A stretch of DNA of 64,000 bases from an uncultured Bacilli bacterium (GCA_934141535.1 CAKPCH010000004.1:56755-120754), one strand, 5' to 3'. Positions 8,391 through 58,935 are shown, counted from the first letter of the stretch. A program made the numbers and translations. The notes: generated from the sequence alone by a model not told the origin.

Positions 8391-8561
8391 AATTCACCTC
8401 GCTAAATATTTTATCATTTTTTTTACTTTTGTCAACATTTCTTTTAAATATCATATATTATAGCAAAAGAATGATAGTGTATGTGAAATTTTATTTTGCT
8501 TATCATTCTTTTTTCGACATATATTCTTTACAATCTATTATATATTATAATTGGTGATAAT

Positions 8562-10291: not shown

Positions 10292-11564
10292 TAAGTATTT
10301 AAGTATAAGTGCTATAAATAGATACTTAAAAGCAAAATTTGATAGTGATGATAATTTAAGAGTAGTATATTTGAAGGGTGAAATATCTAATATAAAGTTT
10401 CATTCTACTGGACATATATACTTTTCTTTAAAAGATGAAACAAGTAAAATAAATGCTATTATGTTCTCTAGTAGTGCTAAAAAATTATTATTTAAGCCAA
10501 CTGATGGATCTAAAGTACTTGTAACTGGTAGAATTAGTGTATATGAAGCATCTGGTGGTTATCAAATTTATGTTGATGAGATGCTAGAAGATGGTATTGG
10601 TAATTTATATATAGCATTTGAAAAATTAAAACAAGATTTAGCAAAAGAAGGATTATTTGATGCAGCTCATAAAAAACCAATACCTAAAATACCTAGTAGA
10701 ATAGGTGTAGTAACTGCACCTACAGGAGCAGCTATAAAAGATATATTATCTACTATTAAAAGAAGATTTCCTATAACAGAAGTTATACTTTTTCCATCTC
10801 TTGTACAAGGAGAAGCAGCAGCACCCGATATAGTAAAGAATATTAAGCTTGCTCAAAACTATGATTTAGATGTTTTAATAGTTGGTAGAGGTGGAGGATC
10901 AATAGAAGATCTTTGGCCTTTTAATGAAGAGATAGTAGCGCGTGCTATTTACGAATGTAAAATACCTGTTATAAGTGCTGTAGGACATGAAATAGACTTT
11001 ACAATAGCAGATTATGTAGCAGATATGCGAGCACCCACTCCAACAGGAGCAGCAGAAATGGCAGTTCCAAATATGAGTGATATTATTAATTATATAAATA
11101 ACTTACAAATAAGATTAAATGAAGCTATAAATAAAAAAATTAATTATCAAAAATTATATTTAGATTCAATTAAAAACTCATATGCAATTAAAAACCCATT
11201 AATAATGTATGAAAATAAAAAACAAGCACTTGATATATTAATAGATAAATTAAATAAAGTACTAGTAAAAAACTATGAGAGTGCTAAACATAAATTTGAG
11301 TTATTAAAGAATAATTATATTCTAAATAATCCAAATATTCTTTATAAAGAAAAAATTGTAAAATTAAATAACTTAATAGAAAAGTTAGAACTAGTAAATC
11401 CACTTGGAATTTTAAAAAGAGGATACTCTTTAACATATAAAGATGATAAAATAATTAGTAATATTAAAGATATAAAGGTTAATTCAAAATTAACAGTAAA
11501 ATTATATAATGGAGATATATTTGTTACTGTAAATGAAGTAAAGGAGAATAGTAATGGCAAATAA
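10284..11564 (+). CDS. xseA: Exodeoxyribonuclease VII large subunit
   Basis: N-terminal OB-fold region (VWVKGEISN-like YLKGEISNIK) and catalytic core; 426 aa; followed by xseB. Confidence 0.85.
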   Translation: MNNKYLSISAINRYLKAKFDSDDNLRVVYLKGEISNIKFHSTGHIYFSLKDETSKINAIMFSSSAKKLLFKPTDGSKVLVTGRISVYEASGGYQIYVDEMLEDGIGNLYIAFEKLKQDLAKEGLFDAAHKKPIPKIPSRIGVVTAPTGAAIKDILSTIKRRFPITEVILFPSLVQGEAAAPDIVKNIKLAQNYDLDVLIVGRGGGSIEDLWPFNEEIVARAIYECKIPVISAVGHEIDFTIADYVADMRAPTPTGAAEMAVPNMSDIINYINNLQIRLNEAINKKINYQKLYLDSIKNSYAIKNPLIMYENKKQALDILIDKLNKVLVKNYESAKHKFELLKNNYILNNPNILYKEKIVKLNNLIEKLELVNPLGILKRGYSLTYKDDKIISNIKDIKVNSKLTVKLYNGDIFVTVNEVKENSNGK

Positions 11565-11862: not shown

Positions 11863-13986
11863 ATGGACGAAAAGGAAATAATTATAAAAATAAATGAACT
11901 TTTTGATAAAGATTCTAAATATTATACTGAAGAAGATATAAGAAAAAAATTAAATATAAAAGGAGAAGAACAATTAATACTTTTAAATAAAACATTAGAA
12001 GTTTTAATTGAAGAAGGAATACTTTTTGAAGGAAAGAATGGCTATTATAAATTATTTTCTAAAGTAAAAGATTTTGCTTTTGGACAAATTAATATAAATA
12101 AAAATGGAACTGGATTTGTTCATACATCAGATGGATATATAATATTAATTGAAAATTGTGATCTTAATGGTGCTCTTAATAAAGATAATGTAGTAGTAAG
12201 TAATATTTATTCTAAAAGAAAAGATTATTATAGTGGTGAAATTTATAAAGTTGTTAAAAGATATAATGAGAATGTAGTATTTGAAGTTATAGGAAACGGT
12301 AAGTGTGCTAGTTTAATACCATATAATATAAATGATAATGTAAGTATAAATATTAAAAATTATGAATTAGCAGATTTAGTTGATGGAACTTTAGTTTTAG
12401 TTAAAGTAGGATGTCAAAAAATAAATGATTTCTATGAAGCTTCTATAGTAAAAACAATAGGATATAAAAATGATCCTGATATAGATATAAAACTAATTTT
12501 AGAAAAATATGATATTCCTATAACATTTAGTGAAGAAATAGAAAGTGAAGCTAAATCATTACCAAAGGAAGTTGAAGAAGATGAATTAATAAATAGAGTT
12601 GATTTAAGAAGAGAAAATGTATTTACTATTGATTGTGATAGTACAAAAGATAGAGATGATGCTGTAAGTATTAAAAAGTTAGATAATGGTAATTACTTAT
12701 TAAAAGTTTCTATCGCACATGTTAGTCACTATATAACTGAAGATACTAAATCATATGAAGAAGCACTTATTCGTTGTATGAGTCACTATCCAAGTGATTC
12801 TTGTATACCAATGCTTCATCCAATTATATCAAATGGTATTTGCTCTTTAAATCCTGGTGTAGATAGATTAACTCGTACAGTTGCTATGGAAATAAATGAA
12901 ATGGGTGAAGTAGTTAACTATGAAATATATAATTCAGTTATTAATTCTAGAATAGCTATGTCTTATAGCAAAGTAAATGAAGTATTAGATGGAAATATAA
13001 TAGATGAATATATTCCATATATAGAAGATTTAAAATTAATGGAAGAATTAAACAATATATTAAATAAAGCTCGTGAAAAAAGAAATTATATTAATTTTAA
13101 TACATTAGAAATAGAAGCACACAAAGACTCTTATGGAGAAATAATTTCATTTACTAATAATAATTATAAAACTGCAGGTCAAATAATTGAAAATTTTATG
13201 TTGCTAGCAAACACTACAGTTTATAATCACTATTCTTGGTTTATATTACCTTATAGAGTACATGAAGCACCAAGTGATGAAAAGGTTAAAGATGTAATAA
13301 AAGTATTAAAATCATCTAATATAAATATACCTAAGATTAATAATATATCTGCTAGATCATTAAAAACTATAATAGAAAGATTAGACAATACTGAAGTAGC
13401 TTTAATAGTAAGAGAATATTTATTAAAATCTATGCAAAAAGCTACATATGATACAAATAATAAAGGTCATTTCGCACTTCAATATGATATATATGGACAT
13501 TTTACATCTCCAATAAGAAGATTACCTGATTTATTAATGCATATGATAATAGATAAAATAGAAAGTTTTGATTATTCAGAAAACTCACTAAATAATTTTG
13601 AAGCATTTTTAAATGATACTTGTAAAAGAGTTAATAAAATAGAAAAAATAGATAGAATTATAGAAGAAGAAACATTAGAGATGTTAATGGCTAAATATAT
13701 GGAACATCATATTGGTGAAGAGTTTAGTGCATATATCACAGATATAGGTAAAAATTCAATGTTTGTAAGAACAACTAATTTAATAAAAGGAAAAATTAAA
13801 TTAAGCAATATATATGACGATAATTATTATTATGATGATAATAAAAAAGCTATAGTAGGAAGAAAAACAAAGAAAAAATATCAAATAGGAAACAAAGTAG
13901 TAGTGCTTGTTAAAGATGCTTGTACTTCTACTAGAACAGTAAATTTTGAAATACCAAATGAAAAAGTTTTAACTAAAAAAAAATGA
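11863..13986 (+). CDS. rnr: RNB-family 3'-5' exoribonuclease (RNase R/RNase II family)
   Basis: RNB motifs DCDSTKDRDDAVS and HFALQYDIYGHFTSPIRRLPDLLMH, and a C-terminal S1-like segment; 707 aa. Confidence 0.8.
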   Translation: MDEKEIIIKINELFDKDSKYYTEEDIRKKLNIKGEEQLILLNKTLEVLIEEGILFEGKNGYYKLFSKVKDFAFGQININKNGTGFVHTSDGYIILIENCDLNGALNKDNVVVSNIYSKRKDYYSGEIYKVVKRYNENVVFEVIGNGKCASLIPYNINDNVSINIKNYELADLVDGTLVLVKVGCQKINDFYEASIVKTIGYKNDPDIDIKLILEKYDIPITFSEEIESEAKSLPKEVEEDELINRVDLRRENVFTIDCDSTKDRDDAVSIKKLDNGNYLLKVSIAHVSHYITEDTKSYEEALIRCMSHYPSDSCIPMLHPIISNGICSLNPGVDRLTRTVAMEINEMGEVVNYEIYNSVINSRIAMSYSKVNEVLDGNIIDEYIPYIEDLKLMEELNNILNKAREKRNYINFNTLEIEAHKDSYGEIISFTNNNYKTAGQIIENFMLLANTTVYNHYSWFILPYRVHEAPSDEKVKDVIKVLKSSNINIPKINNISARSLKTIIERLDNTEVALIVREYLLKSMQKATYDTNNKGHFALQYDIYGHFTSPIRRLPDLLMHMIIDKIESFDYSENSLNNFEAFLNDTCKRVNKIEKIDRIIEEETLEMLMAKYMEHHIGEEFSAYITDIGKNSMFVRTTNLIKGKIKLSNIYDDNYYYDDNKKAIVGRKTKKKYQIGNKVVVLVKDACTSTRTVNFEIPNEKVLTKKK

Positions 13987-16410: not shown

Positions 16411-16436
16411 AAGTAGGGGAATTCCTACTTTTTATA
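16408..16436. terminator. Bidirectional terminator between the radical SAM gene and the convergent CDF transporter
   Basis: agtagg-ggaatt-cctact hairpin flanked by A-run and T-run. Confidence 0.55.
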
Positions 16437-17294
16437 TGGATTAACGTGTATCATACAATGTTTAATATTTTTATCATAATTTTCTAATGCATCATGCACA
16501 TTATGAGAAATTAAATGAGCTTCTTTTAATGACTTATCTTCATCTACACCAATTTCTAAATCTAGATAAATCATATTACCAAATAACCTAGACTTAATAA
16601 TATCTATAGAATCTACACCATCTATAGATTCAATAACACTTTTATATTTATCAATTAATTTTTCATCACATGATTTGTCAACCATCTTATTAATAGAATC
16701 AATAAAAATATCAATAGATACCTTTAATATAAATAAACAAATTATAAGGCTTGCTACTGCATCTAAGATACCAATACCGTATATAGCGCCCACTACTCCA
16801 ATTAAAGATCCTATACTTGACATAGCATCACTTCTATGATGCCAGGCATCTGCCATTAAAGCATTAGAATTAATTTTTAATGCATACTTTCTTGTATACC
16901 AATACATAGCTTCTTTAACCAATATAGAAATAATTGCCATTATGAGTGCGAAAAGAGTTGGAGTAGTAATAGATTCAGGATTAAATATAGATTTAATTCC
17001 TTTATAACCAACTAAAATACCTGTAAAAAATAAAAGGCTTGCAAGAATAATAGAAGCAACACATTCCATTCTCTCATGACCATATTGATGTGAAGCATCA
17101 GAAGATTTATTAGAAACCTTAATACCAATCATAACAATAATTGTACTTAAGACATCACTTAATGTGTGAATAGAATCACTTAACATAGCTTGAGACTTAC
17201 CAATAATACCTGCTAAAAACTTAAATAAAGATAATATAGAGTTCAAAATAATAGTATTAATTGAAACTTTATATGCAATAGATTTAGTATTCAT
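16425..17294 (-). CDS. Cation diffusion facilitator (CDF) family metal efflux transporter
   Basis: Six TM segments with the MLSDSIHTLSDV signature and ADAWHHRSD. Start at MNTKS after the aggagg RBS. Confidence 0.8.
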   Translation of the reverse strand: MNTKSIAYKVSINTIILNSILSLFKFLAGIIGKSQAMLSDSIHTLSDVLSTIIVMIGIKVSNKSSDASHQYGHERMECVASIILASLLFFTGILVGYKGIKSIFNPESITTPTLFALIMAIISILVKEAMYWYTRKYALKINSNALMADAWHHRSDAMSSIGSLIGVVGAIYGIGILDAVASLIICLFILKVSIDIFIDSINKMVDKSCDEKLIDKYKSVIESIDGVDSIDIIKSRLFGNMIYLDLEIGVDEDKSLKEAHLISHNVHDALENYDKNIKHCMIHVNPYKK

Positions 17295-17385
17295 AACTCC
17301 TCCTAGTAAATACATAAATTATAGTTTATTTTTTATTAATTGTCAACATTAATATTATATGTTATAATTACTTTGGAGGTTACAT

Positions 17386-17962: not shown

Positions 17963-18592
17963 ATGAAAAAAGTAATGGACAAACTATTAAATACAATAAA
18001 ATTTGATAAAAAGTATGTTTTATTTTCTATTATAATAGTAGTACTTGGTATAATTACAGGATCTCTTTTTATAGTAATATTAAATAAAACAGATAAAACA
18101 CTTGTAATAGAATATATACAAAAATTTATAGAAGATATTAAAAATAATAATTTTAATTTTATAGATACATTAAAAAATACTATTATTATAAATTATTTAT
18201 TAGTAATAATAATAACTATATTAGGATTTACTTTCTTTTTATCTTTTTCTAATATATTAATATTATTTTATAAAGCTTTTGTTATAGGATTTAGTTTATC
18301 TTCATTTATATTAACTTATAAAATAAAAGGTATATTATTAAGTATTGTATATATATTTCCACATCTAATAATAAATATATTATTAATATCTATTTTAACG
18401 GCTTATATGCTTAAATTATCACATAATATGATTAAATATATTATAAATAAAAAAGAATTAAATATGAGGACTTATTTTAATAAATATTTATATATATTAA
18501 TACTATTTATAATACTTTTTACAATAACTAGTCTATATGAATCATTTGTAGTTCCACATATATTAAAATGGTTAACTAATTTACTAATTTAG
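17963..18592 (+). CDS. spoIIM: Stage II sporulation protein M (SpoIIM)-like integral membrane protein
   Basis: About 209 aa with 5-6 TM segments, co-linear with B. subtilis SpoIIM (KAFVIGF, FPHLIINI, ESFVVPHIL versus KGVVIGF, FPQNFILIP, EGYLSPVLM). Confidence 0.55.
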   Translation: MKKVMDKLLNTIKFDKKYVLFSIIIVVLGIITGSLFIVILNKTDKTLVIEYIQKFIEDIKNNNFNFIDTLKNTIIINYLLVIIITILGFTFFLSFSNILILFYKAFVIGFSLSSFILTYKIKGILLSIVYIFPHLIINILLISILTAYMLKLSHNMIKYIINKKELNMRTYFNKYLYILILFIILFTITSLYESFVVPHILKWLTNLLI

Positions 18593-18671
18593 ACTTATTA
18601 TTTAACACTCCTTTACACTTGACAAATGTCAATAATGTGATAAAATTATAGTAGGTAGAGGAGGTTAAAAC

Positions 18672-19469
18672 ATGAAAATAAATCTATCTGACATATTACA
18701 CGAATTAGGTATATCTAAAGTAAAACTAGCTAAATTTTTAGGTGTATCAAGACAAATGATATATAATTATCTAGAATTAGATGATATTAATAAATGGCCA
18801 AAAGATAAAAAAGTATTATTATTAAACTTATTAGGCGTTAAAAATATAGAAGAAATGGAAAAAATTAAAATAGATACTGACTATATTACTGCAGTTGAAC
18901 TTAGATTAAATAGTTTGTGTGATAGCAAAAAAGAAGAAGTTAATGGAGTAGGGGGAGACTTGTTAAATGGAATAAGTCCCCAAAATCAAGAATTATTTAT
19001 TGGTATTATTGATTTAATAAAAGAATATTTAGAAGATAATGGTAAAGAAGGATTTAATATAATTAATTATTTTTATCATTATTTACAAGTTATGAATAAT
19101 ACAAAAGAATTAAAATACATTTTAGCATATGTAGCAAAAGAAACAGGTTTTGAAAAGCCAATGGAATTCGCATTTGATGAAGATGAACAATTTATATTTG
19201 AAAGTGTAATGTTCTCTGCAATGGTATTATATAGAAGTGGTAAAGCTTCTAAAACAAAATTAGCAGAATCACATAGAAGATTTGTAAATCAAATTGAACA
19301 AAAACAAGAAGATAAATTAAGTCGTACTATGGAACTTAATAATGTTAAAGTTCAAGCATTAAAAGAACTTGGTTATACTGAAATAAATGAAAACAATGCT
19401 ACAGAAGTATTTGAAAAAATAGCAGAAATTCAATCAAGAAAAACAGCTTTTAAAAAATTAGATGTATAG
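18672..19469 (+). CDS. HTH (XRE-type) domain protein, function unknown
   Basis: N-terminal LSDILHELGISKVKLAKFLGVSRQMIYNY helix-turn-helix; strong RBS gaggagg. Confidence 0.5.
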   Translation: MKINLSDILHELGISKVKLAKFLGVSRQMIYNYLELDDINKWPKDKKVLLLNLLGVKNIEEMEKIKIDTDYITAVELRLNSLCDSKKEEVNGVGGDLLNGISPQNQELFIGIIDLIKEYLEDNGKEGFNIINYFYHYLQVMNNTKELKYILAYVAKETGFEKPMEFAFDEDEQFIFESVMFSAMVLYRSGKASKTKLAESHRRFVNQIEQKQEDKLSRTMELNNVKVQALKELGYTEINENNATEVFEKIAEIQSRKTAFKKLDV

Positions 19470-20105
19470 TTTATAACATCTTATTTTTTTGTACACTTCC
19501 CCTATTCTAAATAAAATAGCAAAATAGGGGAGTATCAAAGAAAGAAATCAATATGGATAATCATACATAAATTAGTTTGCCGATTGCTTAAAATTAACAT
19601 TGTTATTAAAATTAATTTATGATATATAATAATAAATAGTAAATATTTAAAAAATATTTAAAAAATTTAAAAATAAAATTTATATATTTAAAGATTGATC
19701 AAGTAAAAATAATTAATTACATATTTATATAACAATTTATATTGTATACAAAAAATAATAAAAATATAAACTTAATTTAGATGAATAATTAACCATTAAA
19801 TTAAAATTGCTTATTGTCCTACAATATATATTATGTTAACTTGTATAAAATGATTAATATGAGACGTTATCTAGGGTCTTTAAACTCTATAAAATCTATC
19901 TCATCGCCTTGCTTATCTACGTATGTACTTTTATATACTTTATCACAATTATTTATTATATCTAGATAATATAAGAACTCATTTTATACTAAATACCCAA
20001 ATGAGAAAAGTTATTTGATTTCTAGAATATTAAATGAAATAAATAATATTAATTAAATATGTATATATGTTAGTTTTTAGTAAATAATATAACTGGGTGA
20101 TTTAA

Positions 20106-20216
20106 ATGAAAAAGAATAATAAACAATCAAAAACTAACATGAATAATAAAAATTATAATTCATCTAGTTCAAGAGAAAAAAGTTCTAAAACTGAATCTAA
20201 TTTAGATTGTAAATAA
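20106..20216 (+). CDS. Candidate 36-aa small basic Asn/Ser/Lys-rich protein
   Basis: ATG 8 nt after a gggtga RBS; followed at once by a strong hairpin terminator. Absent from the ORF track because it is short. Confidence 0.3.
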   Translation: MKKNNKQSKTNMNNKNYNSSSSREKSSKTESNLDCK

Positions 20217-20225
20217 CCCACAATA

Positions 20226-20262
20226 AAAAGAGATACTTCATATATCTCTTTTTTGTATATAC
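20226..20262. terminator. Rho-independent terminator, usable by both the small ORF and convergent zupT
   Basis: aagagata-cttcata-tatctctt hairpin plus T6. Confidence 0.55.
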
Positions 20263-20268
20263 CCTACT

Positions 20269-21018
20269 CTAACTAAATAATATATGATTTATAATCATTA
20301 AAAGAGAACCATATATTATATATTTAAATGTATTTTTTTTATTTGTTTTTATAGCTTCTTTATATAATTCATTTATAGCTATATTTACCATCATTCCTGC
20401 TATTATAGCATATATTATTCCTAATATTGTATTATCTATATATTTAGATAAAAGTAGATATGATAGTAAAGCACCTAATGGTTCTGATATAGCTGAAATT
20501 AAAGTATATAAGAATGCTTTTATTTTACTATTAGTAGAATAATATATTGGGATTGCTATTGATATTCCTTCTGGTATATTATGGAGTGCTATAGCAATAC
20601 TTAATGTTATTCCTAGCTTTATATTATTATTTGAAGTAATAAATGTAACAATACCCTCTGGTATATTATGAAGAATTATTACAAGCATACTAATTATTCC
20701 TAATTTATATAGTTTTAAACTATTTTTAGAAGTTTTTTCTACTTTTTTATCTACTATATTAGAAATTATTATTCCTATTATAAAGCCTATAATAATTAAA
20801 ATGAATGTTATTGGTATAGAATGTTTAGTTATTATAGCTTTTAATGAACTAGGTATTAGATCACTAATAGATACTGTAGCCATTACTCCTACTGCAAAAC
20901 CTAATGCCTTACTTATTATATCTTCCCTATTTCTTTTTATAAATATAAATAGGAAGCCAATTAGAGTTGATATACCCGCCATTGAAGATAATAAAAAAGC
21001 ATATGCAGTATTAGTCAT
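20269..21018 (-). CDS. zupT: ZIP-family zinc transporter
   Basis: Two HNIPEGI motifs (LHNIPEGI twice) in an 8-TM protein of about 250 aa. Confidence 0.8.
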   Translation of the reverse strand: MTNTAYAFLLSSMAGISTLIGFLFIFIKRNREDIISKALGFAVGVMATVSISDLIPSSLKAIITKHSIPITFILIIIGFIIGIIISNIVDKKVEKTSKNSLKLYKLGIISMLVIILHNIPEGIVTFITSNNNIKLGITLSIAIALHNIPEGISIAIPIYYSTNSKIKAFLYTLISAISEPLGALLSYLLLSKYIDNTILGIIYAIIAGMMVNIAINELYKEAIKTNKKNTFKYIIYGSLLMIINHILFS

Positions 21019-21053
21019 AGTATCACCAATAAAGTATATGCTTAATTTTTTAG

Positions 21054-21719
21054 TTAATTAAATTTTACGCAATCATTTAATATATAATTCATAATATTTA
21101 TATCTGTAGTTGTATCATAATGTAGGCCATCTGGTAAATTAAACTTTAATGAACTATATGAGTCGCAATAATTCATTATATTATGAGTTTTACTTGCTAC
21201 TATTCTATTAAAGTTTTTAATTTTTTTATTAGTTCTTATATTATCCCATAAATCATTAATGATATCTTCATCTATTGGATTTACTGATAAGAAATAATAT
21301 GAAGCACTCTTATTATTTTTAATAAATTTTTTATATATATTAACATATTCATTAGCACGTTTTTTATAATCTATATCATAGTTTAAATCATTAACACCTA
21401 AATTAAATATTATATGATAATTAATATTTTTATTTTTTATTAAATTTTTAGCTTTAAATAAAGCTTCATTTTCTAAGAATTCTATATTAGCACCGTTTTT
21501 AGCAATAAATATAATAGAGTCTGGTATATTTAATTCTTCTCTTTTATTTTCTATTAAATACATTCTAGAATCACCAATTATTATTATATAATTTAATTTT
21601 GATATATTATTATTTATATTAAAGAATGCATTAACGCTATTTATATTAATAAAAAAGCATAGTGAACATAATAATAAAAATGAACATATTCTAAATTTTT
21701 TCTTTTTCATAAACATCAC
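21054..21719 (-). CDS. Secreted SGNH/GDSL-like hydrolase
   Basis: Signal peptide, then the IIIGDSRMY block (GDS-x) and a later DGLHYD segment resembling the catalytic DxxH. Confidence 0.5.
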   Translation of the reverse strand: MMFMKKKKFRICSFLLLCSLCFFININSVNAFFNINNNISKLNYIIIIGDSRMYLIENKREELNIPDSIIFIAKNGANIEFLENEALFKAKNLIKNKNINYHIIFNLGVNDLNYDIDYKKRANEYVNIYKKFIKNNKSASYYFLSVNPIDEDIINDLWDNIRTNKKIKNFNRIVASKTHNIMNYCDSYSSLKFNLPDGLHYDTTTDINIMNYILNDCVKFN

Positions 21720-21818
21720 TTAACTAGTTTAGCATTTATTTTGATTTTAATCAACTATATTAAAAATATTTATTGTTTTTTTAATTTGTATATGTTATAT
21801 TAATATTAGGGTGAGTTT

Positions 21819-22823
21819 ATGGTAAATAAGGATAAAGAAAGATATTATGGGGTTGATATATTAAGGATTATAGCAACCTTTTGTGTTATTGGAGTACATT
21901 TTTTCTTAAATACTAATTATTATGATGTGGATCCTGGTGGATTTAGTATGAGAATACAAAGTATTATTAGAAATTTTTGTATGATATGTGTTCCTTTATT
22001 TATTGTTATTAGTGGTTATTTAAATAAGAATAAAGAGTATAATAAAAGTTTTTTTAAGAAATTATTTAATATATTAATTATTTGGTTTTTTTATAGTTTA
22101 ATAGAATACTTTGTATTAAATATTATTAATGGTACTTATACTGATTTTAATTTAAAGAGTACACTTTACGCTATTACAACATTTAAAGGGTGTGAATATT
22201 CTTGGTATATTGAGATGTATATTGGACTTTATTTACTATCCCCTATTTTAAATAATGCATTTGATAGTTTAAATGATAAAAATAAGGATTATTTATTTAT
22301 TATAGCTATAATTATGTTTATTTTGCCTTCATTTATAAATACATTATTTATTAATATAATTCATATACCTTGTTGGTGGGCTACTATCTACCCTGTTGGT
22401 TATTATATAACTGGTAAATATATTAATTATAAACAGTTCAATTTTAAAAAGAAAAATTTATTTATACTATTAGTATTAACTCAAATAATTACTTTCTCAT
22501 ATACTTATATAGGAACAATTAATTATGATAGTTTAACTACTTATATAAGTACTATTATTGTGTTTTTAATATTTTATAATGTAAATATTAAAAGAAACTT
22601 TTCTAAAAATATATTAAAATATATTTCAAGTATTTGTTTAGATATTTATTTAGCTTCTAGTTTAATTGATAAGATTATATATCCTGTTTTTAATAATCAA
22701 ATGAATTTACATAGTATAAATCAAAGTAATTTAATAGTATTTATGCCTCTAGTAGTATTAACTGTATTTATAATATCAAGTATATATGGAAGTGTTAGAA
22801 AATTAATTATTAATGTAAGATAA
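21819..22823 (+). CDS. Acyltransferase family 3 integral membrane protein
   Basis: YYGVDILRIIATFCVIGVHFF N-terminal signature; about 10 TM segments. Confidence 0.7.
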   Translation: MVNKDKERYYGVDILRIIATFCVIGVHFFLNTNYYDVDPGGFSMRIQSIIRNFCMICVPLFIVISGYLNKNKEYNKSFFKKLFNILIIWFFYSLIEYFVLNIINGTYTDFNLKSTLYAITTFKGCEYSWYIEMYIGLYLLSPILNNAFDSLNDKNKDYLFIIAIIMFILPSFINTLFINIIHIPCWWATIYPVGYYITGKYINYKQFNFKKKNLFILLVLTQIITFSYTYIGTINYDSLTTYISTIIVFLIFYNVNIKRNFSKNILKYISSICLDIYLASSLIDKIIYPVFNNQMNLHSINQSNLIVFMPLVVLTVFIISSIYGSVRKLIINVR

Positions 22824-22853
22824 AAGAGATTTTAAATTAATCTCTTTTTTTCT
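22824..22853. terminator. Bidirectional terminator
   Basis: aagagatt-ttaaatt-aatctctt hairpin plus T7. Confidence 0.55.
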
Positions 22854-23344
22854 AATATAATATTATCTAAATCTCTTATAGTTAGTATATCATCATCTAC
22901 TATAATAAAACTATTAGAACCCATTCTTGATTTAGAAATTGATCCTGGATTTATAAATAATTTATTATTATATTCTTCTATTTTACTTATATGGGTGTGA
23001 CCAGTAAATATTATATTGGCATCTATTTTACTTAAATAGTCTTTATCAAATAAATCTCCATGTGTTAGAATTATTTTTTTATTATTTAGTTCTATTTCTT
23101 CTAAATACTTATTTCCAAATAATATACCTTTTAAATTGTTATCACAATTTCCTTTAACATATACTATATTATCTTTCATAAGGTTTAATCTATTAATTAT
23201 TTCTTCTATATTTAAATCTATTCCATAATTAATTAAATCGCCTAATATTAATAGTTTATTACAATGTTCTTTTTGATATATATTAAGGACTGTATTTAGA
23301 GCATCTATATTTCCATGTATATCTGATATTACCATATATTTCAT
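22832..23344 (-). CDS. YfcE-type metallophosphoesterase
   Basis: MVISDIHGN ... GDL ... GNCD ... THGD ... GHTH calcineurin-like motifs. Start at MKYM after the aaggtga RBS. Confidence 0.75.
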   Translation of the reverse strand: MKYMVISDIHGNIDALNTVLNIYQKEHCNKLLILGDLINYGIDLNIEEIINRLNLMKDNIVYVKGNCDNNLKGILFGNKYLEEIELNNKKIILTHGDLFDKDYLSKIDANIIFTGHTHISKIEEYNNKLFINPGSISKSRMGSNSFIIVDDDILTIRDLDNIILEKKRLI

Positions 23345-23349
23345 TTTTA

Positions 23350-24516
23350 TCACCTTAATTTAGTTAAAAAGCTTTTTCCTACTATTGGCATTGGAACTTT
23401 AAAATTATCTGCTATAGTGGCTCCTATATCACTAAAACAATCTAACTCTTTTAAATGTTTAGGATCTTTAAATTTTTTAGAATATATAAGTACTGGTGTA
23501 TTTTCTCTTGTATGATCTGTTCCCATATATGAAGGATCATTACCATGATCTGCAGTTATTATAAGTAAGTCATCATCCTTTAGGTTAGATTTTATTTCTC
23601 CTAAATAATTATCAAATTCTTTTATTGCTTCAGCATAACCTTTTATATTTCTTCTATGTCCATATTTAGAATCAAAATCATTTAAGTTAGCAAAACATAA
23701 TCCATTAAAATCTTCTTTTTCTGTTTCAAGTATTAAATTAATTCCTTCTAAGTTATTACCTGTATGTGTAGTTTTTGTAATACCACATCCATTAAATATA
23801 TCATTAATTTTACCAATTGCTATAACATCAAAACCATTATTTTTTAAGTTATCTAATACAGTATCTGATACAGGATCAAGTGCGAAATCTTTTCTATTAC
23901 CTGTTCTTATAAAGTTACCTTTAGTTCCTATATAAGGGCGCGCTATAATTCTTCCAACCTTCCATTCTTCTTTTAATGTAAGTTCTCTTGCTATAGCACA
24001 GTCTTCATATAATTCTTCTAGTGGTATAATGTCTTCATGAGCAGCTATTTGAAGTACTGAATCAGCTGATGTATAAACTATTAAGTCTCCTGTTTTCATT
24101 TGTTCTTCACCTAATTGTTTAATAATTTCAGTACCTGATGCATCACAATTACCTATTATATGTCTTTTACAACGTCTTTCTAATTCATCTATTAATTCTT
24201 TAGGAAATCCTGTTTTAGTAAATGTTTTAAATGGTATCAAAGTTCTTATACCCATCATTTCTAAATGACCTGTTAGTGTATCTTTACCATTTGCTTTTGG
24301 ATGTGCTTTAGTATAATAAGAATCTGTTTTCTCTATATTTTTATAATTTACTAAGTTTAAAAATCCCATTTTTTCTAAATTAGGATAATCAATAGGATTA
24401 TATTTTAAAATATGTCCTAATGTATTAGCACCCTCACTTTCAAATTTTTTAGCATCTATTGCTTCCCCTACTCCAAGTGAATCTAAAACTATTAAAAATA
24501 CTCTATTAAATTTCAT
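23350..24516 (-). CDS. deoB: Phosphopentomutase
   Basis: N-terminal RVFLIVLDSLGVGEA and the alkaline-phosphatase-like core. Start at MKFNR after the agaggga RBS. Confidence 0.85.
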   Translation of the reverse strand: MKFNRVFLIVLDSLGVGEAIDAKKFESEGANTLGHILKYNPIDYPNLEKMGFLNLVNYKNIEKTDSYYTKAHPKANGKDTLTGHLEMMGIRTLIPFKTFTKTGFPKELIDELERRCKRHIIGNCDASGTEIIKQLGEEQMKTGDLIVYTSADSVLQIAAHEDIIPLEELYEDCAIARELTLKEEWKVGRIIARPYIGTKGNFIRTGNRKDFALDPVSDTVLDNLKNNGFDVIAIGKINDIFNGCGITKTTHTGNNLEGINLILETEKEDFNGLCFANLNDFDSKYGHRRNIKGYAEAIKEFDNYLGEIKSNLKDDDLLIITADHGNDPSYMGTDHTRENTPVLIYSKKFKDPKHLKELDCFSDIGATIADNFKVPMPIVGKSFLTKLR

Positions 24517-32430: not shown

Positions 32431-34587
32431 TTATAAATTAGATTTTAAAACTTCAATTACTGGACGAACTCCGTAAGCTCCACTTGAACTTACTTTAGTT
32501 TGATAAGTTTGAGCTACTAAGGTACCACTACCGTTAGAATATCTAGAATATGTAAAACTCACTGCCCAAGCAGCATGATCTGATTTAGTATATTTTGTTA
32601 ATGCACAAGAGGTTGTTGTCCAATAACCCCAAATGATTACATCTGAATTATATAAGCAACCAAAGTTTTTACAATCACTACTTGTTCTATCAAATAGCCA
32701 GCCATATTTACATCCACTTGTATTTCCTTTTTCATCATCATCATTATAATAACAAGTACTACTTGCAGTAGTTGTGTTAGTTTCAAAATAAAAATTACCT
32801 GGTGGATCAGTTACTTCATTAAAAGTTGTATTACCTGTGATTTTAGCTATCTCACCCGCAGAAATAAGCCTTGCCTTATAATCAGCATAATCAATATTGT
32901 ATTTAGATTGACTGGGCTGAGCTGATTGATCTAGTGAATAAGAAGTTGGCGTTTCTACTCCTATCCAAGATGATGTATCAGTTTTTAATTGTTCTAATAC
33001 TTCTTTAGGACCAGTTGTAGAACTTCCACTAGAATTCCATGCTATAGTTGATGTTGTATTATGATCAAGTATTAAATTTAACTTATCTCCACCATCATCA
33101 TTAAATGCATAAAACTTCATACATCCTGATTTTACTCCAGCATTACTTTGTGAATCTGTATAATCTGTACAAGTTGTTCCTTTGTCTACATCAAAATAAA
33201 CTATTTCACCGTTAGAATATGTTTTCACTCCGTTACCAATAGTAATATCACCACTTACATTAGGTATTGTCAATAATTTAGTAGTTGTATCATATATATA
33301 GTCTACATCTTTAGTTAATACTGTATCTCCCATAACAATCTTAGGATTACCTAAATCAATATTTGCTGTATATGTATTACCTTCTATTGCTTCTTTATTA
33401 CAATTAGTACATGTCACTCCATCATATGTTACTTTAAATATTTGTTTATATTCAAAACCTATATTAAAACTTTGAGGTTCACTAGTTACTAAACTATCAT
33501 TTATTCCATCTTTATATTTAATCGTTACATATATTTTTTTAGTTACTCCATTTGTACAGTTATCACCATCACATACTGGTATTACATCATTTTCATTATA
33601 ATTATCTATTGTATAATCTAAATTAGTATCTGAACTTAAAGATGATTTTGATAATGTTATTACTGGGCGAATACCTGGTGATGTAACATAAACGAAGTCG
33701 TTACCCAAATAATTGCTATAATGCACATCCCACACACGAGTATAATCATTAATATAAAGTGAAACAGTCCAATAACTCCAACCTTCTTGAACTGGATGAG
33801 TTGCATTTCTTAAGTAGTCACATAACCATATTGGCAAACCTGAAATAGTTGTATTACTAAATGTTTTACCTGATGCTGTAGCTATCTGATATACGGTTGG
33901 AAAAATTACTTCTACTCCTTCTTTATTAAATATACTTTTTATGTGGCCTAAATAATCTTTTCCTTCTGGCGCATCACTTCCAGTGGTCGCTATATTTTTA
34001 CATGTTTTTCCATTTGCTCCACCATCTGTACACCATTTTATTTTTTGCGGTACATATGAATCCATAAAGTTTTCTTTCATGATTAAACTTACTGTGTCTG
34101 TATTATTTTCTAGAACAAAGAATGTATTTGAATAATTGTCTCCTACTTGGCATGTATATTCATCACCATAATTAAAGTTCCCACTTGGTACATTGCCTGT
34201 AGTTGCTGTTGTTACTGGAGTACATATTGGAGTTTGTGTAAGTGCTCCCATTTTTACATTACCTAAATTAGTTATATCTACTTCATATTTTACATATGAA
34301 TCTTTACTTGGTAATACTACATCTCCAAATATATTAGATACGTTATATTCTTCAGTTCTTGATATAGCACCTCCATTTGTAGAATTTACTTTTATACCAG
34401 TTAATCTTACTGTTTTATCTACTCTTATCATAGCTATATTTTTCATAACTAAGTTTGAACTAAATGAAGCAAATCCTATAGTTAAACTTGTTACTAATAT
34501 AGCACATATTACTATTAAATATTTTGAGATCTTTTTTCTCTTTATAAAACTAAAATTATTAAATCCATAATTATTTTTATGCCTCAT
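32431..34587 (-). CDS. Large secreted/surface protein carrying two copies of a Cys-containing domain shared with the prepilin-like protein at 39402-40388
   Basis: N-terminal signal-anchor; residues ~120-315 are about 70% identical to the C-domain of the 328-aa pilin-like protein (CTPVTTATTGNVP ... FFVLENNTDTVSLIMKENF ... GKDYLGHIKSIFNK ... GIRPVITLSKS). A diverged second copy ends YGVRPVIEVLKSNL. Confidence 0.6.
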   Translation of the reverse strand: MRHKNNYGFNNFSFIKRKKISKYLIVICAILVTSLTIGFASFSSNLVMKNIAMIRVDKTVRLTGIKVNSTNGGAISRTEEYNVSNIFGDVVLPSKDSYVKYEVDITNLGNVKMGALTQTPICTPVTTATTGNVPSGNFNYGDEYTCQVGDNYSNTFFVLENNTDTVSLIMKENFMDSYVPQKIKWCTDGGANGKTCKNIATTGSDAPEGKDYLGHIKSIFNKEGVEVIFPTVYQIATASGKTFSNTTISGLPIWLCDYLRNATHPVQEGWSYWTVSLYINDYTRVWDVHYSNYLGNDFVYVTSPGIRPVITLSKSSLSSDTNLDYTIDNYNENDVIPVCDGDNCTNGVTKKIYVTIKYKDGINDSLVTSEPQSFNIGFEYKQIFKVTYDGVTCTNCNKEAIEGNTYTANIDLGNPKIVMGDTVLTKDVDYIYDTTTKLLTIPNVSGDITIGNGVKTYSNGEIVYFDVDKGTTCTDYTDSQSNAGVKSGCMKFYAFNDDGGDKLNLILDHNTTSTIAWNSSGSSTTGPKEVLEQLKTDTSSWIGVETPTSYSLDQSAQPSQSKYNIDYADYKARLISAGEIAKITGNTTFNEVTDPPGNFYFETNTTTASSTCYYNDDDEKGNTSGCKYGWLFDRTSSDCKNFGCLYNSDVIIWGYWTTTSCALTKYTKSDHAAWAVSFTYSRYSNGSGTLVAQTYQTKVSSSGAYGVRPVIEVLKSNL
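33880..34240. repeat. DNA-level repeat (copy A), about 85% identical to 39640-39990
   Basis: Direct comparison of 34021-34240 with 39770-39990 and of 33880-33990 with 39650-39740 shows long runs of identity (for example cttactgt.tctgtatt.ttttctag.acaaagaatgtatttg). Confidence 0.7.
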
Positions 34588-51378: not shown

Positions 51379-52155
51379 CTAACTAATTTTATTTTTAATA
51401 TTTTTTAAAGCACTCTTCTCTAATCTTGAAATTTGTGCTTGAGATATACCTATTTCACTTGCTAATTCCATTTGTGTTTTACCTGTTATATAACGTTCTT
51501 TAATTATATATTTTTCTTTTGTATTTAATGTTCTTATTGCTTCTTTGAGTGCTACACTATCATCTATATTTTTCATTTCATTTTTCTTATCTTCTAATTG
51601 ATCTTCTAAATATATAGTATCTCCACCATCATTATATAATGGTTCAAATAAACTTACTGTATCTTTCATACTATCTAGTGCATTACTAACTTCATATTCT
51701 GTTAAATTAAGAGCTTTAGATATTTCACCTATACTTGGTTCTTTATTATATTTATTAGTTAATTCTTCTTTTTTTAATAAAGCATGGTATGCTATATCTT
51801 TAATAGAACGTGCTACACGTATACTATTATTATCTCTTAAATATCTTTTAACCTCTCCTAATATCATAGGTACTGCATATGTACTAAATTTAACATCAAA
51901 TTTAAGATCAAAATTATCTATAGCTTTAATTAGCCCTATACAACCTACTTGAAATAAATCATCCATATTATCTATTCTATTATTATATTTTTTTAATAAA
52001 CTTAATACTAATTTAAGATTACCATTTACTAAATCTTCTTTAGCAAACATATCTCCTTCTTTATATCTTTTAAATAATTCTACCATCTCACTATTATCTA
52101 AAACTTTTAAATTCGCAGTATTCACGCCACATATTTCTACTTTATGACGTGCCAT
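51379..52155 (-). CDS. sigG: RNA polymerase sporulation sigma factor SigG
   Basis: Near-identity to the B. subtilis SigG N-terminus (KVEICGV.T..L.VL...EM..LF ... DLFQVGCIGLIKAIDNFDL ... VKFSTYAVPMI.GE..RYLRDN); region 4 HTH at the C-terminus. Confidence 0.85.
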   Translation of the reverse strand: MARHKVEICGVNTANLKVLDNSEMVELFKRYKEGDMFAKEDLVNGNLKLVLSLLKKYNNRIDNMDDLFQVGCIGLIKAIDNFDLKFDVKFSTYAVPMILGEVKRYLRDNNSIRVARSIKDIAYHALLKKEELTNKYNKEPSIGEISKALNLTEYEVSNALDSMKDTVSLFEPLYNDGGDTIYLEDQLEDKKNEMKNIDDSVALKEAIRTLNTKEKYIIKERYITGKTQMELASEIGISQAQISRLEKSALKNIKNKIS

Positions 52156-54101: not shown

Positions 54102-55172
54102 TTAAAAACCACTTCTTCTTCTTAAGAATGAAGGAATTATATCATCTGGATCTTCTGAAATATCAGTATAAGAAGGACTATCAGATTGTTTATCTAATTT
54201 TATAGTTTTATCTTCATTTTTCTTTTCATCTTCAAATCCAGTAGCTATTACTGTAACAATAATCTCATCATTTAAATTTTCATTAATAACAGCACCAAAT
54301 ATTGTATTCATATCTGTTTTAGCACTATTTCTAATTACTTCAGCAGCTTCTTCTACTTCAAATAAAGTTAAGTTATTTCCACCTGTTACATTTATAATAG
54401 CATCTGTAGCACCATCTATACTAGTTTCAAGTAATGGACTTGATATTGCTTGTTCAGCAGCTTCAGTAGCTCTATTTTCTCCAACTCCAATACCAATACC
54501 AATAAGTGCTTTACCACGTTTTTCCATAACTGTTCTAACATCTGCAAAGTCCAAATTTATTAAACCTGCTACAGCTATTAAATCTGATATTGATTGAACA
54601 CCACGTCTAAGTACATTATCTACTTCTTTAAATGATTCTAAAAGTGGTGTAGATTTATCTATTATTTCTCTTAATTTATCATTAGGTATTACTATTAATG
54701 TATCAACATTTTTCTTTAACTCTTCAAGACCAGCAACTGCTTGATCCATTCTTTTCTTACCTTCAAATGAAAATGGTTTAGTAACTATACCAACTGTTAA
54801 AGCACCAAGTTCTTGTGCGATATTTGCGATTACTGGAGCAGCTCCTGTTCCAGTTCCTCCACCCATTCCACAAGTAACAAATACCATATCAGCACCTGAT
54901 AATGCTTCTTCTAATTCTTTCTTACTTTCAAGTGCTGCCTCTCTACCAATTTCAGGTTTAGCACCAGCACCTCTTCCTCCAGTAAGATTTTCTCCTATTT
55001 GTATTTTTGTTGGAGCTTTAGAACAATTTAATACTTGCAAATCAGTATTAGCAACTATAAACTCAACACCTTTTACTCCTGATTCAATCATTCTATTAAC
55101 AGCGTTATTACCACCGCCACCAACACCTATTACTTTTATTTTAGCTACTTGATCCATTTCTAATCCAAACAT
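54102..55172 (-). CDS. ftsZ: Cell division GTPase FtsZ
   Basis: [28 protein letters not shown] tubulin signature; RBS agaggagg. Confidence 0.95.
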
Positions 55173-55183
55173 ATTATCCTCCT

Positions 55184-56431
55184 CTATTCGCTAAAGAAAA
55201 ATCCAAAAATTTTTCCTAGCATTGAATCTGATGTATTTAATTTTTTAGATGTAACAGAAGTAATTTGGTACATCTCGTTATCACTTATCATACTATAATC
55301 TTTATTTTTTAATTTTAACTTACTTATAAAATAAACTATATTCCCAATACACGCAGAATATCTATTATCTCTAATACCAAGCATTTTTATGTTACCTATA
55401 TTGGCATTTTCACCAAATACATCTTTGACATTATACTCAATACCAGACATATTGCTTGTACCCCCTGTAATTATAATATAATCTATTTTTCTACTTGTCA
55501 ATAGGTTAATCTCTTTTTTAGCCTCATTTAGTATTTCATTTATTCTTTCCATAACTACTTCTGATATTTCAAACTGATTTATCTTTAGATGAGGATCATT
55601 AACACTTTTAACCTCAACTATATCATTAACACTCGCATATTTCTTATGAGAGAGTGCAAATTTATGTTTCAACATATGGGCTGTTGGAATATCTAGTTTA
55701 TACACATAAGATATGTCATTATCTATATTTTTACCACCCATATATATTAAACTACTCTTAACTAAAACACTCTTATTATAAAGAGATACTTCAGTAATAT
55801 CTTCTCCTATATTTACAATAGCACCCACTTTATCAGCAAAGTTTTTATTATTAAATGAATATAAATCACCTATACTATTTAATGATATATCAACTACTTC
55901 AATTCCAATATTTTCTAATAATCCTATAACAGAATATACATTTTTCTTAGGAGTTGTAACAAGAACTGCTCTACATCCCAATGTAGTACAAGCAGTACCA
56001 ATAGGATTTTTAATAAAAGCTTTATCATCTGTGCTATAGTCTATTGGTAGTATAGTAACCATTTCTCTTAACATAGAAGGATTACTCTTAACAGCAATCT
56101 CTAATACTTTAATAATATCTTCATTTCTTACAATATTATCTGGGTTATTTATTTTTAAACTCCCCTTTATAACTTGATATTCTGCATTAAATGAAGGTAC
56201 TGATGTAACAACTTTTTTTATTTGTATCCCAAGCATATCTTCTACTTCTTTTATTGCACCCTTAATAGATTCAGTTGCAAGTTCAACATCTGTTATAAGT
56301 CCTTTTTTTATCCCTTTAGATTTAAAAGAAGAAGCTGCAAGTAAATTTAACTTGTTTTGATACAATTCACATACCACTATTTTTATAGAACTAGAACCAA
56401 TATCAAGACTAGTATAAATGTGCTTCATCAT
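55184..56431 (-). CDS. ftsA: Cell division protein FtsA
   Basis: Actin-fold N-terminus [16 protein letters not shown] and position immediately upstream of ftsZ. Confidence 0.9.
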
Positions 56432-56492
56432 ATCATCTCCTACAATCTATATAATATTATACTATAAAAAGAAAAAAAAGTAAAAACTTTTT

Positions 56493-58136
56493 TTAAATTT
56501 CTTGAATTACAATAATAATTACAGGTTTACTCTCTGTTTCTTTATAAAAATATTTACCTAATTTTTCTCTTATACTTAATTTTAGCTTATTATAATCTAT
56601 ATAATTTTCTTTTACATTAGATGTAATAACATCACTTACTATATTTTCTGATTCTTTAATAATATCTATATTATCTTTAACATAAATAAATCCTTTAGTT
56701 ATAACATTAGGTTTATTTATTATTTTTCTTGTTTTTTTATCTATATTAGCATTTACTATAACAATACCACTATCACTTAGCATCTCTCTATCTTTTAATA
56801 CTAAATCTCCTACATCTTCACTACTTTTTCCATCTATTAAAATTTCATCTACTTTAACAGTTTCTGATGTATCAGTTAAAACACCATCTATAAATGTAAG
56901 TACTTCTCCATTAAGTGTTAAAAGAATATTTTCTTCATTTATATTTAATTTGCGCGCTAAAAGAGCATTTTCTACTTGAAATCTATAATCTCCTGTAACT
57001 GGCATATAATATTTTGGTCTCATTAAATTTATCATCATCATTATGTCTTCTTTTGATGCATGAGGAGATAAGAATTTTTTAGATAAAATAATTAGTTTAG
57101 AACCTATTTTAGCTATTTTATTAAATATTTTGGTTGCTGTTATTTCTGAACCTTCATATACTGGAGATAAGAATGCTACAGTATCTGTTTCTTTTAAAGT
57201 AACAAATTTATCTGAACCTCTTAATATTCTTTTTAAACTAGAATATGGTTTTTCTCTTTCATTAGATATTACAACTATAATATTTTCATCATTTACATGA
57301 CTAATTGTTTTAATTCTATTAATATCAAATTTTATATAATCTAATTCTATACCTTTTTTTATAATATTCTCTAATGATTTACCCATTATTACTATATTTC
57401 TATCTGTTTTCATAATTTCATTAAATAATTCTTGAAGTCTATATATTTGAGTTTCAAATATATTAAAGAATATTCTTCCTTCATTCTCATCTAATGTAGT
57501 TCTTATTATTGAAGATGCTTGATGATTTGGAGAAGTATAACCTGTTTTTTCTGAATAAAGTGATTCATTCATAAGGCATAATACTCCTTGTTTTCCTATA
57601 TATGCAAGTTTTCCTATATCCATAGAATATGGACCTGTCATTGATGGATCAAATAAATAATTGCCAGTAAAGCATATAGCACCATCTTTTGTATTTAAGA
57701 CATATAAGAAACTATCTGGTAAAGCATGAGAAACTTGTATTGGGAATATTTCTTCATCACCAAATGATATTTTTTTATGTGCTTTTACTTCTATTAAATT
57801 TGCACTTTTTATTCCACTTTCTTCTAAATCTTGTTTTATTATTTCAAGTGTGAATTTACCACCATATATTTTAACATCTTTTAAATCTTCTAAAATGTCA
57901 GCTAAAGCTCCCATTTGTTCATCATGTCCATGTGTTATAAATATACCTTTTATTCTATCTTTATTTTCTATTAAATAATCATAATTTGGAATAATATAGT
58001 CTACTCCAAGTAATTTATCATCAGCATATTTTAATCCTGCTTCAAAAACATATATATTTTCATTTACTTCTACTACATACATGTTTTTTCCTATTTCATT
58101 TTGCCCGCCTAAGGCAAAAATTTTAATTTTACTCAT
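56493..58136 (-). CDS. RNase J-family (metallo-beta-lactamase / beta-CASP) protein with degenerate catalytic motifs
   Basis: Co-linear with B. subtilis RNase J1 (FALGG ... EIGKN ... IDYVIP), but motif II reads HGHDEQ instead of HGHEDH, motif IV reads TGNY instead of TGDF, and the beta-CASP motif C position is T instead of H (PVTGDY versus PIHGEY). Confidence 0.75.
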   Translation of the reverse strand: MSKIKIFALGGQNEIGKNMYVVEVNENIYVFEAGLKYADDKLLGVDYIIPNYDYLIENKDRIKGIFITHGHDEQMGALADILEDLKDVKIYGGKFTLEIIKQDLEESGIKSANLIEVKAHKKISFGDEEIFPIQVSHALPDSFLYVLNTKDGAICFTGNYLFDPSMTGPYSMDIGKLAYIGKQGVLCLMNESLYSEKTGYTSPNHQASSIIRTTLDENEGRIFFNIFETQIYRLQELFNEIMKTDRNIVIMGKSLENIIKKGIELDYIKFDINRIKTISHVNDENIIVVISNEREKPYSSLKRILRGSDKFVTLKETDTVAFLSPVYEGSEITATKIFNKIAKIGSKLIILSKKFLSPHASKEDIMMMINLMRPKYYMPVTGDYRFQVENALLARKLNINEENILLTLNGEVLTFIDGVLTDTSETVKVDEILIDGKSSEDVGDLVLKDREMLSDSGIVIVNANIDKKTRKIINKPNVITKGFIYVKDNIDIIKESENIVSDVITSNVKENYIDYNKLKLSIREKLGKYFYKETESKPVIIIVIQEI

Positions 58137-58251
58137 AAATTCTCCTTTCTTTTATTTTTTATATTTATATAAGATTTGAGTGCTAAATAATTATACCATT
58201 TAATGTATAAAAAATCAATTTAAAAGAATAAGTAGTTATTTGCTTATTCTT

Positions 58252-58935
58252 TTATTCATCAAATACATCAAAGTATTCACCACTATCTAAATAAAGTATA
58301 CCTTTTTTATTATCAAATGATAAAATCATTTCAAAATATTTATTTAGTGTTAAACCTCTATTTAATGTTATATAAATATAATTACCATCATTCATAAGTA
58401 TAAAGAATCTCTCATCATCTACATCATTTGGTTTATACTCTATTTCAGACATTCTATTTAATATGTCTTTATTGATACGTTGCATAAGATTTAAAAATTT
58501 ATTATAAACTGTATCTGGTATTTTATTAATAACTGTTACTACAGTACTTTTATCATCTATTTTATATCCATTATATAATACATATTTATTTTCTGGTTGA
58601 TAGTAAAATAATGGATAATTTTCTTCTACTTTTATATGTACTTTATTAATAAAACCAGTTTTATAAACTTTAGCACTTAATATATAAGTATTATTCTCTA
58701 ATCTTTTTTTTATTGTCATTGAATTATTATTAAGAGAATTAGGATAATTCTTTATGTTTGCTATATCTATTATTTGTTGATCACTTAAAAAGTCATTACC
58801 ACTTATATATATATTTTTTATTTTTACATTAACTATACCATATATAAATAAGATAATAAGAAAAACAAAGATTATAAATTTAAAGAATCTTTTTTTATTT
58901 AATTTTCTTTTGTTTTTCTTCCCTTTTTTACTCAT
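58252..58935 (-). CDS. divIB: Cell division protein DivIB/FtsQ
   Basis: Basic N-terminus, single TM, POTRA-like extracellular domain; position between murB and the ftsA-ftsZ pair. Confidence 0.7.
   Translation of the reverse strand: MSKKGKKNKRKLNKKRFFKFIIFVFLIILFIYGIVNVKIKNIYISGNDFLSDQQIIDIANIKNYPNSLNNNSMTIKKRLENNTYILSAKVYKTGFINKVHIKVEENYPLFYYQPENKYVLYNGYKIDDKSTVVTVINKIPDTVYNKFLNLMQRINKDILNRMSEIEYKPNDVDDERFFILMNDGNYIYITLNRGLTLNKYFEMILSFDNKKGILYLDSGEYFDVFDE

Follow-up and report, generated by a model that had tools for sequence, protein, structure and literature searches.

INTRODUCTION

RNase J2 proteins have been described in staphylococci and in Bacillus subtilis as degenerate partners of the canonical RNase J1. 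In Staphylococcus epidermidis J1 the residues D78, H79, D164 and H390 hold one manganese ion (metal-site A) and H74, H76, H142 and D164 hold the other (metal-site B), while S. epidermidis J2 replaces exactly D78, H79, D164 and the motif C His (H389, equivalent to position 390) and holds a single manganese (PMC7864078). The activity of Staphylococcus aureus J2 depends on H80 and E166. An S. aureus J2 active-site mutant is wild-type while the deletion is deleterious, and a structural role has been proposed for the protein (PMC3937233). B. subtilis J2 (RnjB/YmfA) is ∼1000-fold weaker than J1, has an active site that is dispensable in vivo and is proposed to be a J1 specificity factor; its H76A substitution leaves the half-lives of target mRNAs unchanged, whereas deletion or an interface mutation alters them (bioRxiv 10.64898/2026.05.27.728192). 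The same work draws a parallel to CPSF100 with CPSF73 and IntS9 with IntS11, in which an active beta-CASP nuclease is likewise paired with a degenerate paralog. Here we describe an RNase J-like gene on a stretch of 64,000 nucleotides from an uncultured Bacilli bacterium (GCA_934141535.1 CAKPCH010000004.1:56755-120754; the whole stretch is called the window below, and all coordinates count from its first letter). An initial annotation had read the gene as a probable catalytically dead pseudo-enzyme embedded in the division cluster and possibly a partner of a canonical RNase J.

We conclude that the encoded protein is probably an RNase J2-type (RnjB-like) paralog, of the partner type, from an uncultured and very low-GC gut Bacilli lineage whose metagenome-assembled genomes (MAGs) are labelled Bacilli, Tenericutes or Mollicutes. 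The idea of an impaired paralog that partners a canonical RNase J holds in so far as it matches the established role of J2 in B. subtilis and S. aureus and as motifs and phylogeny are J2-like. The protein is, however, not a new kind of pseudo-enzyme: since its motif pattern and its phylogeny fall on the J2 side, it belongs to the already known RNase J2 class.

RESULTS

The gene encodes a full-length RNase J

The coding sequence (56493..58136, minus strand) specifies 547 amino acids plus a stop and starts at an ATG that is preceded, at a distance of 5 nt, by the Shine-Dalgarno-like sequence AAAGGAG (58142..58148, minus), in a window that is very AT-rich throughout (∼24% GC). With 440.2 bits over residues 4–544 (cutoff 400) the protein clears TIGR00649, the NCBIfam model for the RNase J family, and with 457.7 bits it stays below the cutoff of 820 set for the RnjA/J1 model NF047419. 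Its Pfam domains, Lactamase_B, RNase_J_b_CASP, RMMBL and RNase_J_C, follow the order metallo-beta-lactamase, inserted beta-CASP, C-terminal, and the RNase J C-terminal (oligomerisation) domain takes up residues 446–547 (56496..56801, minus; PF17770, E 1.8e-25, profile positions 1–102 of 102). An AlphaFold2 model made from 38 sequences, in which this last domain is also modelled, has a mean pLDDT of 87 and matches RNase J structures in Foldseek with TM-scores of 0.8–0.9, the top match being chain A of the B. subtilis RNJ2–RNJ1 integrative model 9A5V. The protein is a full-length RNase J with the complete family architecture. Six independent metagenome contigs encode the identical protein on DNA that differs from the window by 12 synonymous changes only, so the sequence is not an assembly artefact.

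Metal-site A ligands are replaced and metal-site B ligands are kept

The substitutions noticed in the initial annotation had been placed by eye. A careful re-alignment against J1 and J2 structures did not restore the canonical ligands: over residues 4–547 HMMER aligns the protein co-linearly both with B. subtilis J1 (3ZQ4, E 9e-104), as had been claimed, and with S. epidermidis J2 (6K6W, E 2e-101), and MAFFT alignments put the HGHDEQ, TGNY and PVTGDY substitutions in the same columns. We followed each position through a conservation set of 129 clade relatives (50–100% identity). Motif II, canonically HxHxDH and HGHEDH in J1, reads HGHDEQ (residues 69–74; 57915..57932, minus), which keeps H69 and H71 and turns D78 into E73 and H79 into Q74. 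Motif III, SHALPDS (57711..57731, minus), keeps H137, the equivalent of the metal-B ligand H142 and invariant in 129/129 relatives. In motif IV, TGNY where J1 has TGDF (residues 157–160; 57657..57668, minus), the bridging Asp164 has become Asn159, and Asn is found in 125 of the 129 relatives. The beta-CASP motif A region, NESL (57558..57569, minus), retains its acidic residue as E191 (Asp in J1), and motif B, SPHAS (57054..57068, minus), retains S357 and H359 of the 5′-phosphate pocket (equivalent to S366 and H368; Ser in 122/129 and His in 129/129). In motif C, PVTGDY as against PIHGEY in J1 (residues 379–384; 56985..57002, minus), His390 is replaced by Thr381. The canonical two-metal ligand set is incomplete, as H74, H76 and H142 are present while D78, H79, D164 and H390 have become E, Q, N and T. 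As aligned, the protein is without all four of the predicted metal-site A ligands and keeps the three His predicted for metal-site B (H69, H71 and H137), which would correspond to the single-metal pattern of J2.

The same four metal-A positions are replaced in Staphylococcus J2 (6K6W, 8YYK), which likewise keeps H74, H76 and H142 and whose catalytic core superposes with our model at a TM-score of 0.92 and an rmsd of 2.1–2.3 Å. The residues that have come in differ, being H/A/E/Q in Staphylococcus J2 (H80, A81, E166 and Q392) and E/Q/N/T here, and H80 and E166, which Staphylococcus J2 needs for its residual activity, are without a functional equivalent. A degenerate motif II in which the first two His are kept is the J2 style, found as HGHEHA in Staphylococcus and as 74-HGHDEN-79 in B. 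subtilis J2 (bioRxiv 10.64898/2026.05.27.728192). Four relatives (L030, L031, L033 and L036) read HGHDEN exactly as B. subtilis J2 does, and the present protein is one residue off. B. subtilis J2 also shares the architecture and the length class (555 against 547 residues), and supplies the closest structural match. It differs in genomic location and is only ∼33% identical. The bridging position 164, an Asp in the B. subtilis J2 sequence used for comparison, is Asn in our protein. RNase J1 (RnjA, 3ZQ4) has the same fold and domain order in a co-linear alignment; unlike J1, our protein fails the RnjA model, is without the metal-A ligands and stands apart in the tree described below. The CPSF100 and IntS9 type of partner shows distant fold similarity (Foldseek ranks 43–50); these are remote homologs of 13–18% identity that arose by independent duplications and have other interfaces and substrates.

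The clade groups with Bacillales J2

We built a neighbour-joining (NJ) tree with simple distances from an L-INS-i alignment of 51 sequences and 100 bootstraps, taking the Staphylococcus J2 reference from the Protein Data Bank (PDB) alignment output. The query clade, a large degenerate group and Bacillales J2 are monophyletic in 98/100 replicates, and J1 is joined with Bacillales J2 in none (0/100). At the split between J1 and J2 the protein thus goes with B. subtilis J2. A core J1 clade of B. subtilis J1, Mollicutes J1 and the J1 family of ‘MAG: Bacilli bacterium’ is recovered in 96/100, and a wider predefined J1 group that includes P0193 in only 27/100. An earlier quick NJ tree from a fast alignment had set the clade apart from Staphylococcus J2, and was overruled by the bootstrapped L-INS-i tree. 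The identity of the query itself is nearly equal to B. subtilis J2 (33%), J1 (32%) and Staphylococcus J2 (32%), while less diverged members of the clade favour B. subtilis J2 over J1, for example L030 with 391 against 350 bits.

The gene is under purifying selection with a drifting metal-site A

Homologs number in the thousands, and the 120 closest share 77–100% identity and come from gut and rumen metagenomes, in MAGs labelled Bacilli, Firmicutes or Tenericutes. Pairwise dN/dS is 0.04–0.16 (unsaturated pairs), from which we conclude that the gene is functional and under strong purifying selection; together with the 12 synonymous and 0 non-synonymous changes seen within the species, this led us to reject a reading as pseudogene. 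The degenerate ligand pattern is present in all 129 relatives of the conservation set. None of them departs from H74, H76, H142, H368, the motif A Glu or D441 (the counterpart of D449 in B. subtilis J2), whereas the D78 position drifts through E/Q/N/G/K/A/D/S, the H390 position through T/I/N/M/V/L/S/C, and either Q or N stands in place of H79. As the metal-A positions drift while the other pocket residues are invariant, metal-site A has apparently been abandoned and the remaining pocket constrained. Such a constrained pocket with a lost site A would suit a protein that binds RNA or phosphate, or one with a residual one-metal function. Of the 150 closest representatives of 50%-identity clusters, about half carry some degenerate ligand pattern, of many kinds, so proteins of this sort are common and the diversity of J2-like pseudo-nucleases far exceeds the few model proteins that have been studied.

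Canonical J1 genes occur in related lineages

If the protein is a J2, a J1 would be its expected partner. A tblastn search with the query found no second rnj in the 64-kb window or in any of the fetched loci (flank coverage 6–10 kb for J2-type loci), and in none of the ∼30 J2-bearing assemblies compared could a J1 be placed together with a query-type J2. One J1 candidate picked by amino-acid composition, P0168, proved to be a Spiroplasma J1, and the tail matches had the wrong GC content or genetic code 4; we rejected it. Through another, P0142, we reached a densely populated J1 family of ‘MAG: Bacilli bacterium’ with the HGHEDH motif, whose genes usually adjoin ftsY-ylxM and rny and come from MAGs with the same labels and habitats as the J2-bearing ones. 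The J1 proteins P0512, P0470, P0456 and P0562 (JAFRBN01, JAAWCY01, JAHKZG01 and ENA samples) coincide with none of the ∼30 J2-bearing assemblies or samples, and a comparison of NCBI accession blocks for five J2 and five J1 proteins gave no overlap. A metagenome scan returned 80 J1 loci from the same habitats, many of them at 24–29% GC and none with a J2. Single-copy flanking genes common to these loci and the window are only 50–57% identical; the only close match to the window species is an IS30-like (HTH_38) gene with 88% amino-acid identity. It stands beside a canonical J1 on the human-gut contig L080 (L080:4945-5862), and a strain of the window species, L003, carries a NUDIX gene in the rnj–ftsA interval as well as an IS30-like gene (L003:11673-12167 and 16419-17333). 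J1 and J2 are both retained throughout the Mollicutes, even in minimal ones (PMC4014445). We consider it likely, though unproven, that a canonical J1 is present in the genome that encodes our protein.

The position in the division cluster is shared by close relatives

The rnj gene lies between a divIB/ftsQ-type gene with a POTRA_1 domain (58252..58935, minus) on its upstream side and ftsA (55184..56431, minus) followed by ftsZ (54102-55172, minus) on its downstream side, so the neighbours named in the initial annotation are the right ones. The unusual position it had pointed to is real, but confined to close relatives: the order murG-murB-divIB-rnj-ftsA-ftsZ is kept in relatives of 76–84% identity wherever the contig reaches the flanks, and members at 53–62% identity (L025-L029, L036) have rnj elsewhere in the genome. 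With synteny limited in this way we rejected coupling to the division cluster as a general rule. Even among the 76–84% relatives some have unrelated genes inserted on either side of rnj, and the divIB–ftsA interval varies among relatives and strains.

Directly after the divIB stop lies a predicted terminator-like element, a 12-bp A/U-rich hairpin with a U-rich tract (58221..58254, minus; -12.7 kcal/mol, z = -3.95 against shuffles). The divIB–rnj spacer further contains a predicted promoter-like TTGATT-17-TATAAT with an extended -10 TG (58190..58218, minus), which scores 10/12 in a consensus scan and is joint best in the region, where shuffled AT-rich sequence yields as many matches. A promoter-like site also precedes ftsA (56456-56484). 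From the hairpin, the promoter-like sites and the variable insertions we take rnj to be a self-contained unit in a variable spot of the division and cell wall (dcw) cluster; it appears to be driven by a promoter of its own, and its place between divIB and ftsA would reflect a genus-level insertion of such a transcription unit into a variable division-cluster spot.

A division gene adjoins rnj a second time, independently, in a subclade of 53–56% identity, in which ezrA, the septation-ring regulator gene, is followed by a conserved 295-aa open reading frame (ORF) with no Pfam match and then by the J2-type rnj (L030:3249-7644, L031:3161-7650, L033:28-4493). Beside the same ezrA / 214-aa gene pair, further metagenome lineages of low GC carry a canonical J1 (L118:3972-11650, L129:236-8355). 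As J1 and J2 loci both adjoin ezrA, either RNase J paralog tends to be found close to this gene across the broad group, and with the canonical J1 there as well the adjacency may be inherited synteny as readily as a sign of function.

Other features of the window

The window also encodes an RNase R-type exoribonuclease (RNB and cold-shock domains; 11863-13986, plus) and the large subunit of exonuclease VII (10284-11564), so other RNA-decay enzymes are present. A GC skew sign change, a switch of gene orientation from plus to minus at ∼20–22 kb and the peak of the cumulative GC skew fall within 18000-24000. Such a switch of skew and orientation is expected for converging forks, which makes ∼20–22 kb a probable replication terminus. 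A 718-aa ORF without a Pfam match lies next to smc (32431-34587, minus) at a local GC of 0.30 against ∼0.24, and an alanyl-tRNA synthetase-like ORF (1219-2967, plus) comprises the catalytic core and tRNA_SAD in only 582 residues, far below a typical AlaRS. The lineage, with its GC content of 24% and its NCBI labels Bacilli, Tenericutes or Mollicutes, bears a sporulation signature (window 8496-9500, plus, and 51379-52155, minus; L031:7660-11444): SpoIIP and, following ftsZ and fhs, a sigma factor like SigF/G are joined by a germination operon of the GerA type that a relative carries.

DISCUSSION

If the J2 proteins of B. subtilis and S. aureus are a guide, this protein alone would have very little nuclease activity at best, and is most likely a non-catalytic or weakly catalytic subunit that would pair with a canonical J1 through its C-terminal and interface regions and modulate the stability, the activity or the substrate choice of J1. 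‘Catalytically dead’, as proposed in the initial annotation, is too firm a description and is not established by the motifs, and the accompanying statement that substitutions at these positions abolish activity goes too far: Staphylococcus J2, with the same four positions substituted and an equally degraded site, keeps a weak metal-dependent activity on RNA.

Several observations weigh against a J2-type partner protein. The tree is a simple NJ tree in which fast-evolving degenerate sequences can attract each other, so the grouping with J2 may be affected. Its B. subtilis J2 sequence was checked only at H74–N79, D449, R544 and the length, with Staphylococcus J2 as its best PDB match. While the equivalent of D449 (D441) is invariant, the J1-contacting R544 of B. 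subtilis J2 is Ser or Cys in the 129 relatives, a change that would weaken the partner analogy, and the heteromer, like the J1 partner itself, is putative here, whereas B. subtilis J2 is a J1 partner. No second rnj was found in the loci searched, and no J1 could be placed in any of the J2-bearing assemblies. The counterparts of the S. aureus residues H80 and E166 are a drifting Glu (E/Q/N/G/K...) and an Asn, a mismatch with which the Staphylococcus analogy would not tell whether any activity remains. This last point bears on whether the protein could still work as a ribonuclease, through a one-metal mechanism or one independent of metal such as has been proposed for S. aureus J2. Little or no variation is seen at H69, H71, H137, the motif A Glu, S357/H359 and Asn159, and Staphylococcus J2 binds one manganese and cleaves RNA weakly, both of which would agree with such an enzyme. 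We nonetheless consider it unlikely, because an unconstrained residue and an Asn, which cannot be a general base, stand where S. aureus has H80 and E166, because B. subtilis J2 is so much weaker than J1 and can dispense with its site in vivo, and because the conserved pocket could serve RNA or 5′-phosphate binding only. It is also rather doubtful that the protein is an independently degenerated RNase J duplicate, a lineage-specific pseudo-enzyme whose motif resemblance to J2 is convergent. The quick NJ tree, the almost equal identities to J2 and J1 references and the many ligand patterns among the 150 closest representatives, which make repeated loss plausible, speak for convergence, but the union of all degenerate sequences with Bacillales J2 in 98/100 replicates (J1 with Bacillales J2, 0/100), the exact HGHDEN common to B. 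subtilis J2 and clade relatives and the clear preference of less diverged members for J2 argue for common descent. That it is the sole RNase J of its genome, with a non-nucleolytic role or residual activity, strikes us as very improbable. In its favour, the window and the flanks are devoid of a canonical rnj, none of the ∼30 assemblies with a query-type J2 could be matched with a J1, and the 120 proteins nearest to the MAG J1 family include none from the J2-bearing rabbit-MAG species; against this, the coverage was 64 kb of the genome and ∼10-kb flanks elsewhere, J1 is kept even in minimal Mollicutes (PMC4014445), and canonical J1 genes occur in related 24–29% GC contigs, one of them on L080 beside an IS30-like gene 88% identical to that of the window-species strain.

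A link to cell division, for example through binding of FtsZ or other divisome parts, would explain the place in the dcw cluster. Every close relative with contigs long enough to show the flanks keeps the divIB-rnj-ftsA-ftsZ order, ezrA, the 295-aa ORF and a J2-type rnj follow one another in a second subclade, and the C-terminal domain of Streptococcus mutans RNase J2 is reported to bind FtsZ (PMC6759994). We regard the link as improbable, since the association is absent at 53–62% identity, rnj comes with a promoter-like site of its own behind a terminator-like hairpin, the divIB–ftsA interval takes unrelated insertions, and with a canonical J1 near ezrA elsewhere the adjacency may be inherited synteny. 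An RNase J2-type subunit in a self-contained transcription unit is the reading we prefer. There is a slim chance that a J2-type protein has been recruited to division, either as a nuclease-dead scaffold that binds FtsZ/EzrA complexes or to couple local RNA turnover to septation. If true, such recruitment would explain why one genus has the gene between divIB and ftsA while another has it directly downstream of ezrA. In a more radical variant, the genus may be without any canonical J1.

As it stands the finding adds little, and it would be notable only if the link to division or the absence of J1 were confirmed. What it does indicate is that the J2-type degenerate paralog reaches into uncultured low-GC gut Bacilli, where a drifting metal-site A next to an invariant metal-site B and 5′-phosphate pocket supports the current view that J2 serves to bind RNA or as a structural partner rather than as a nuclease.

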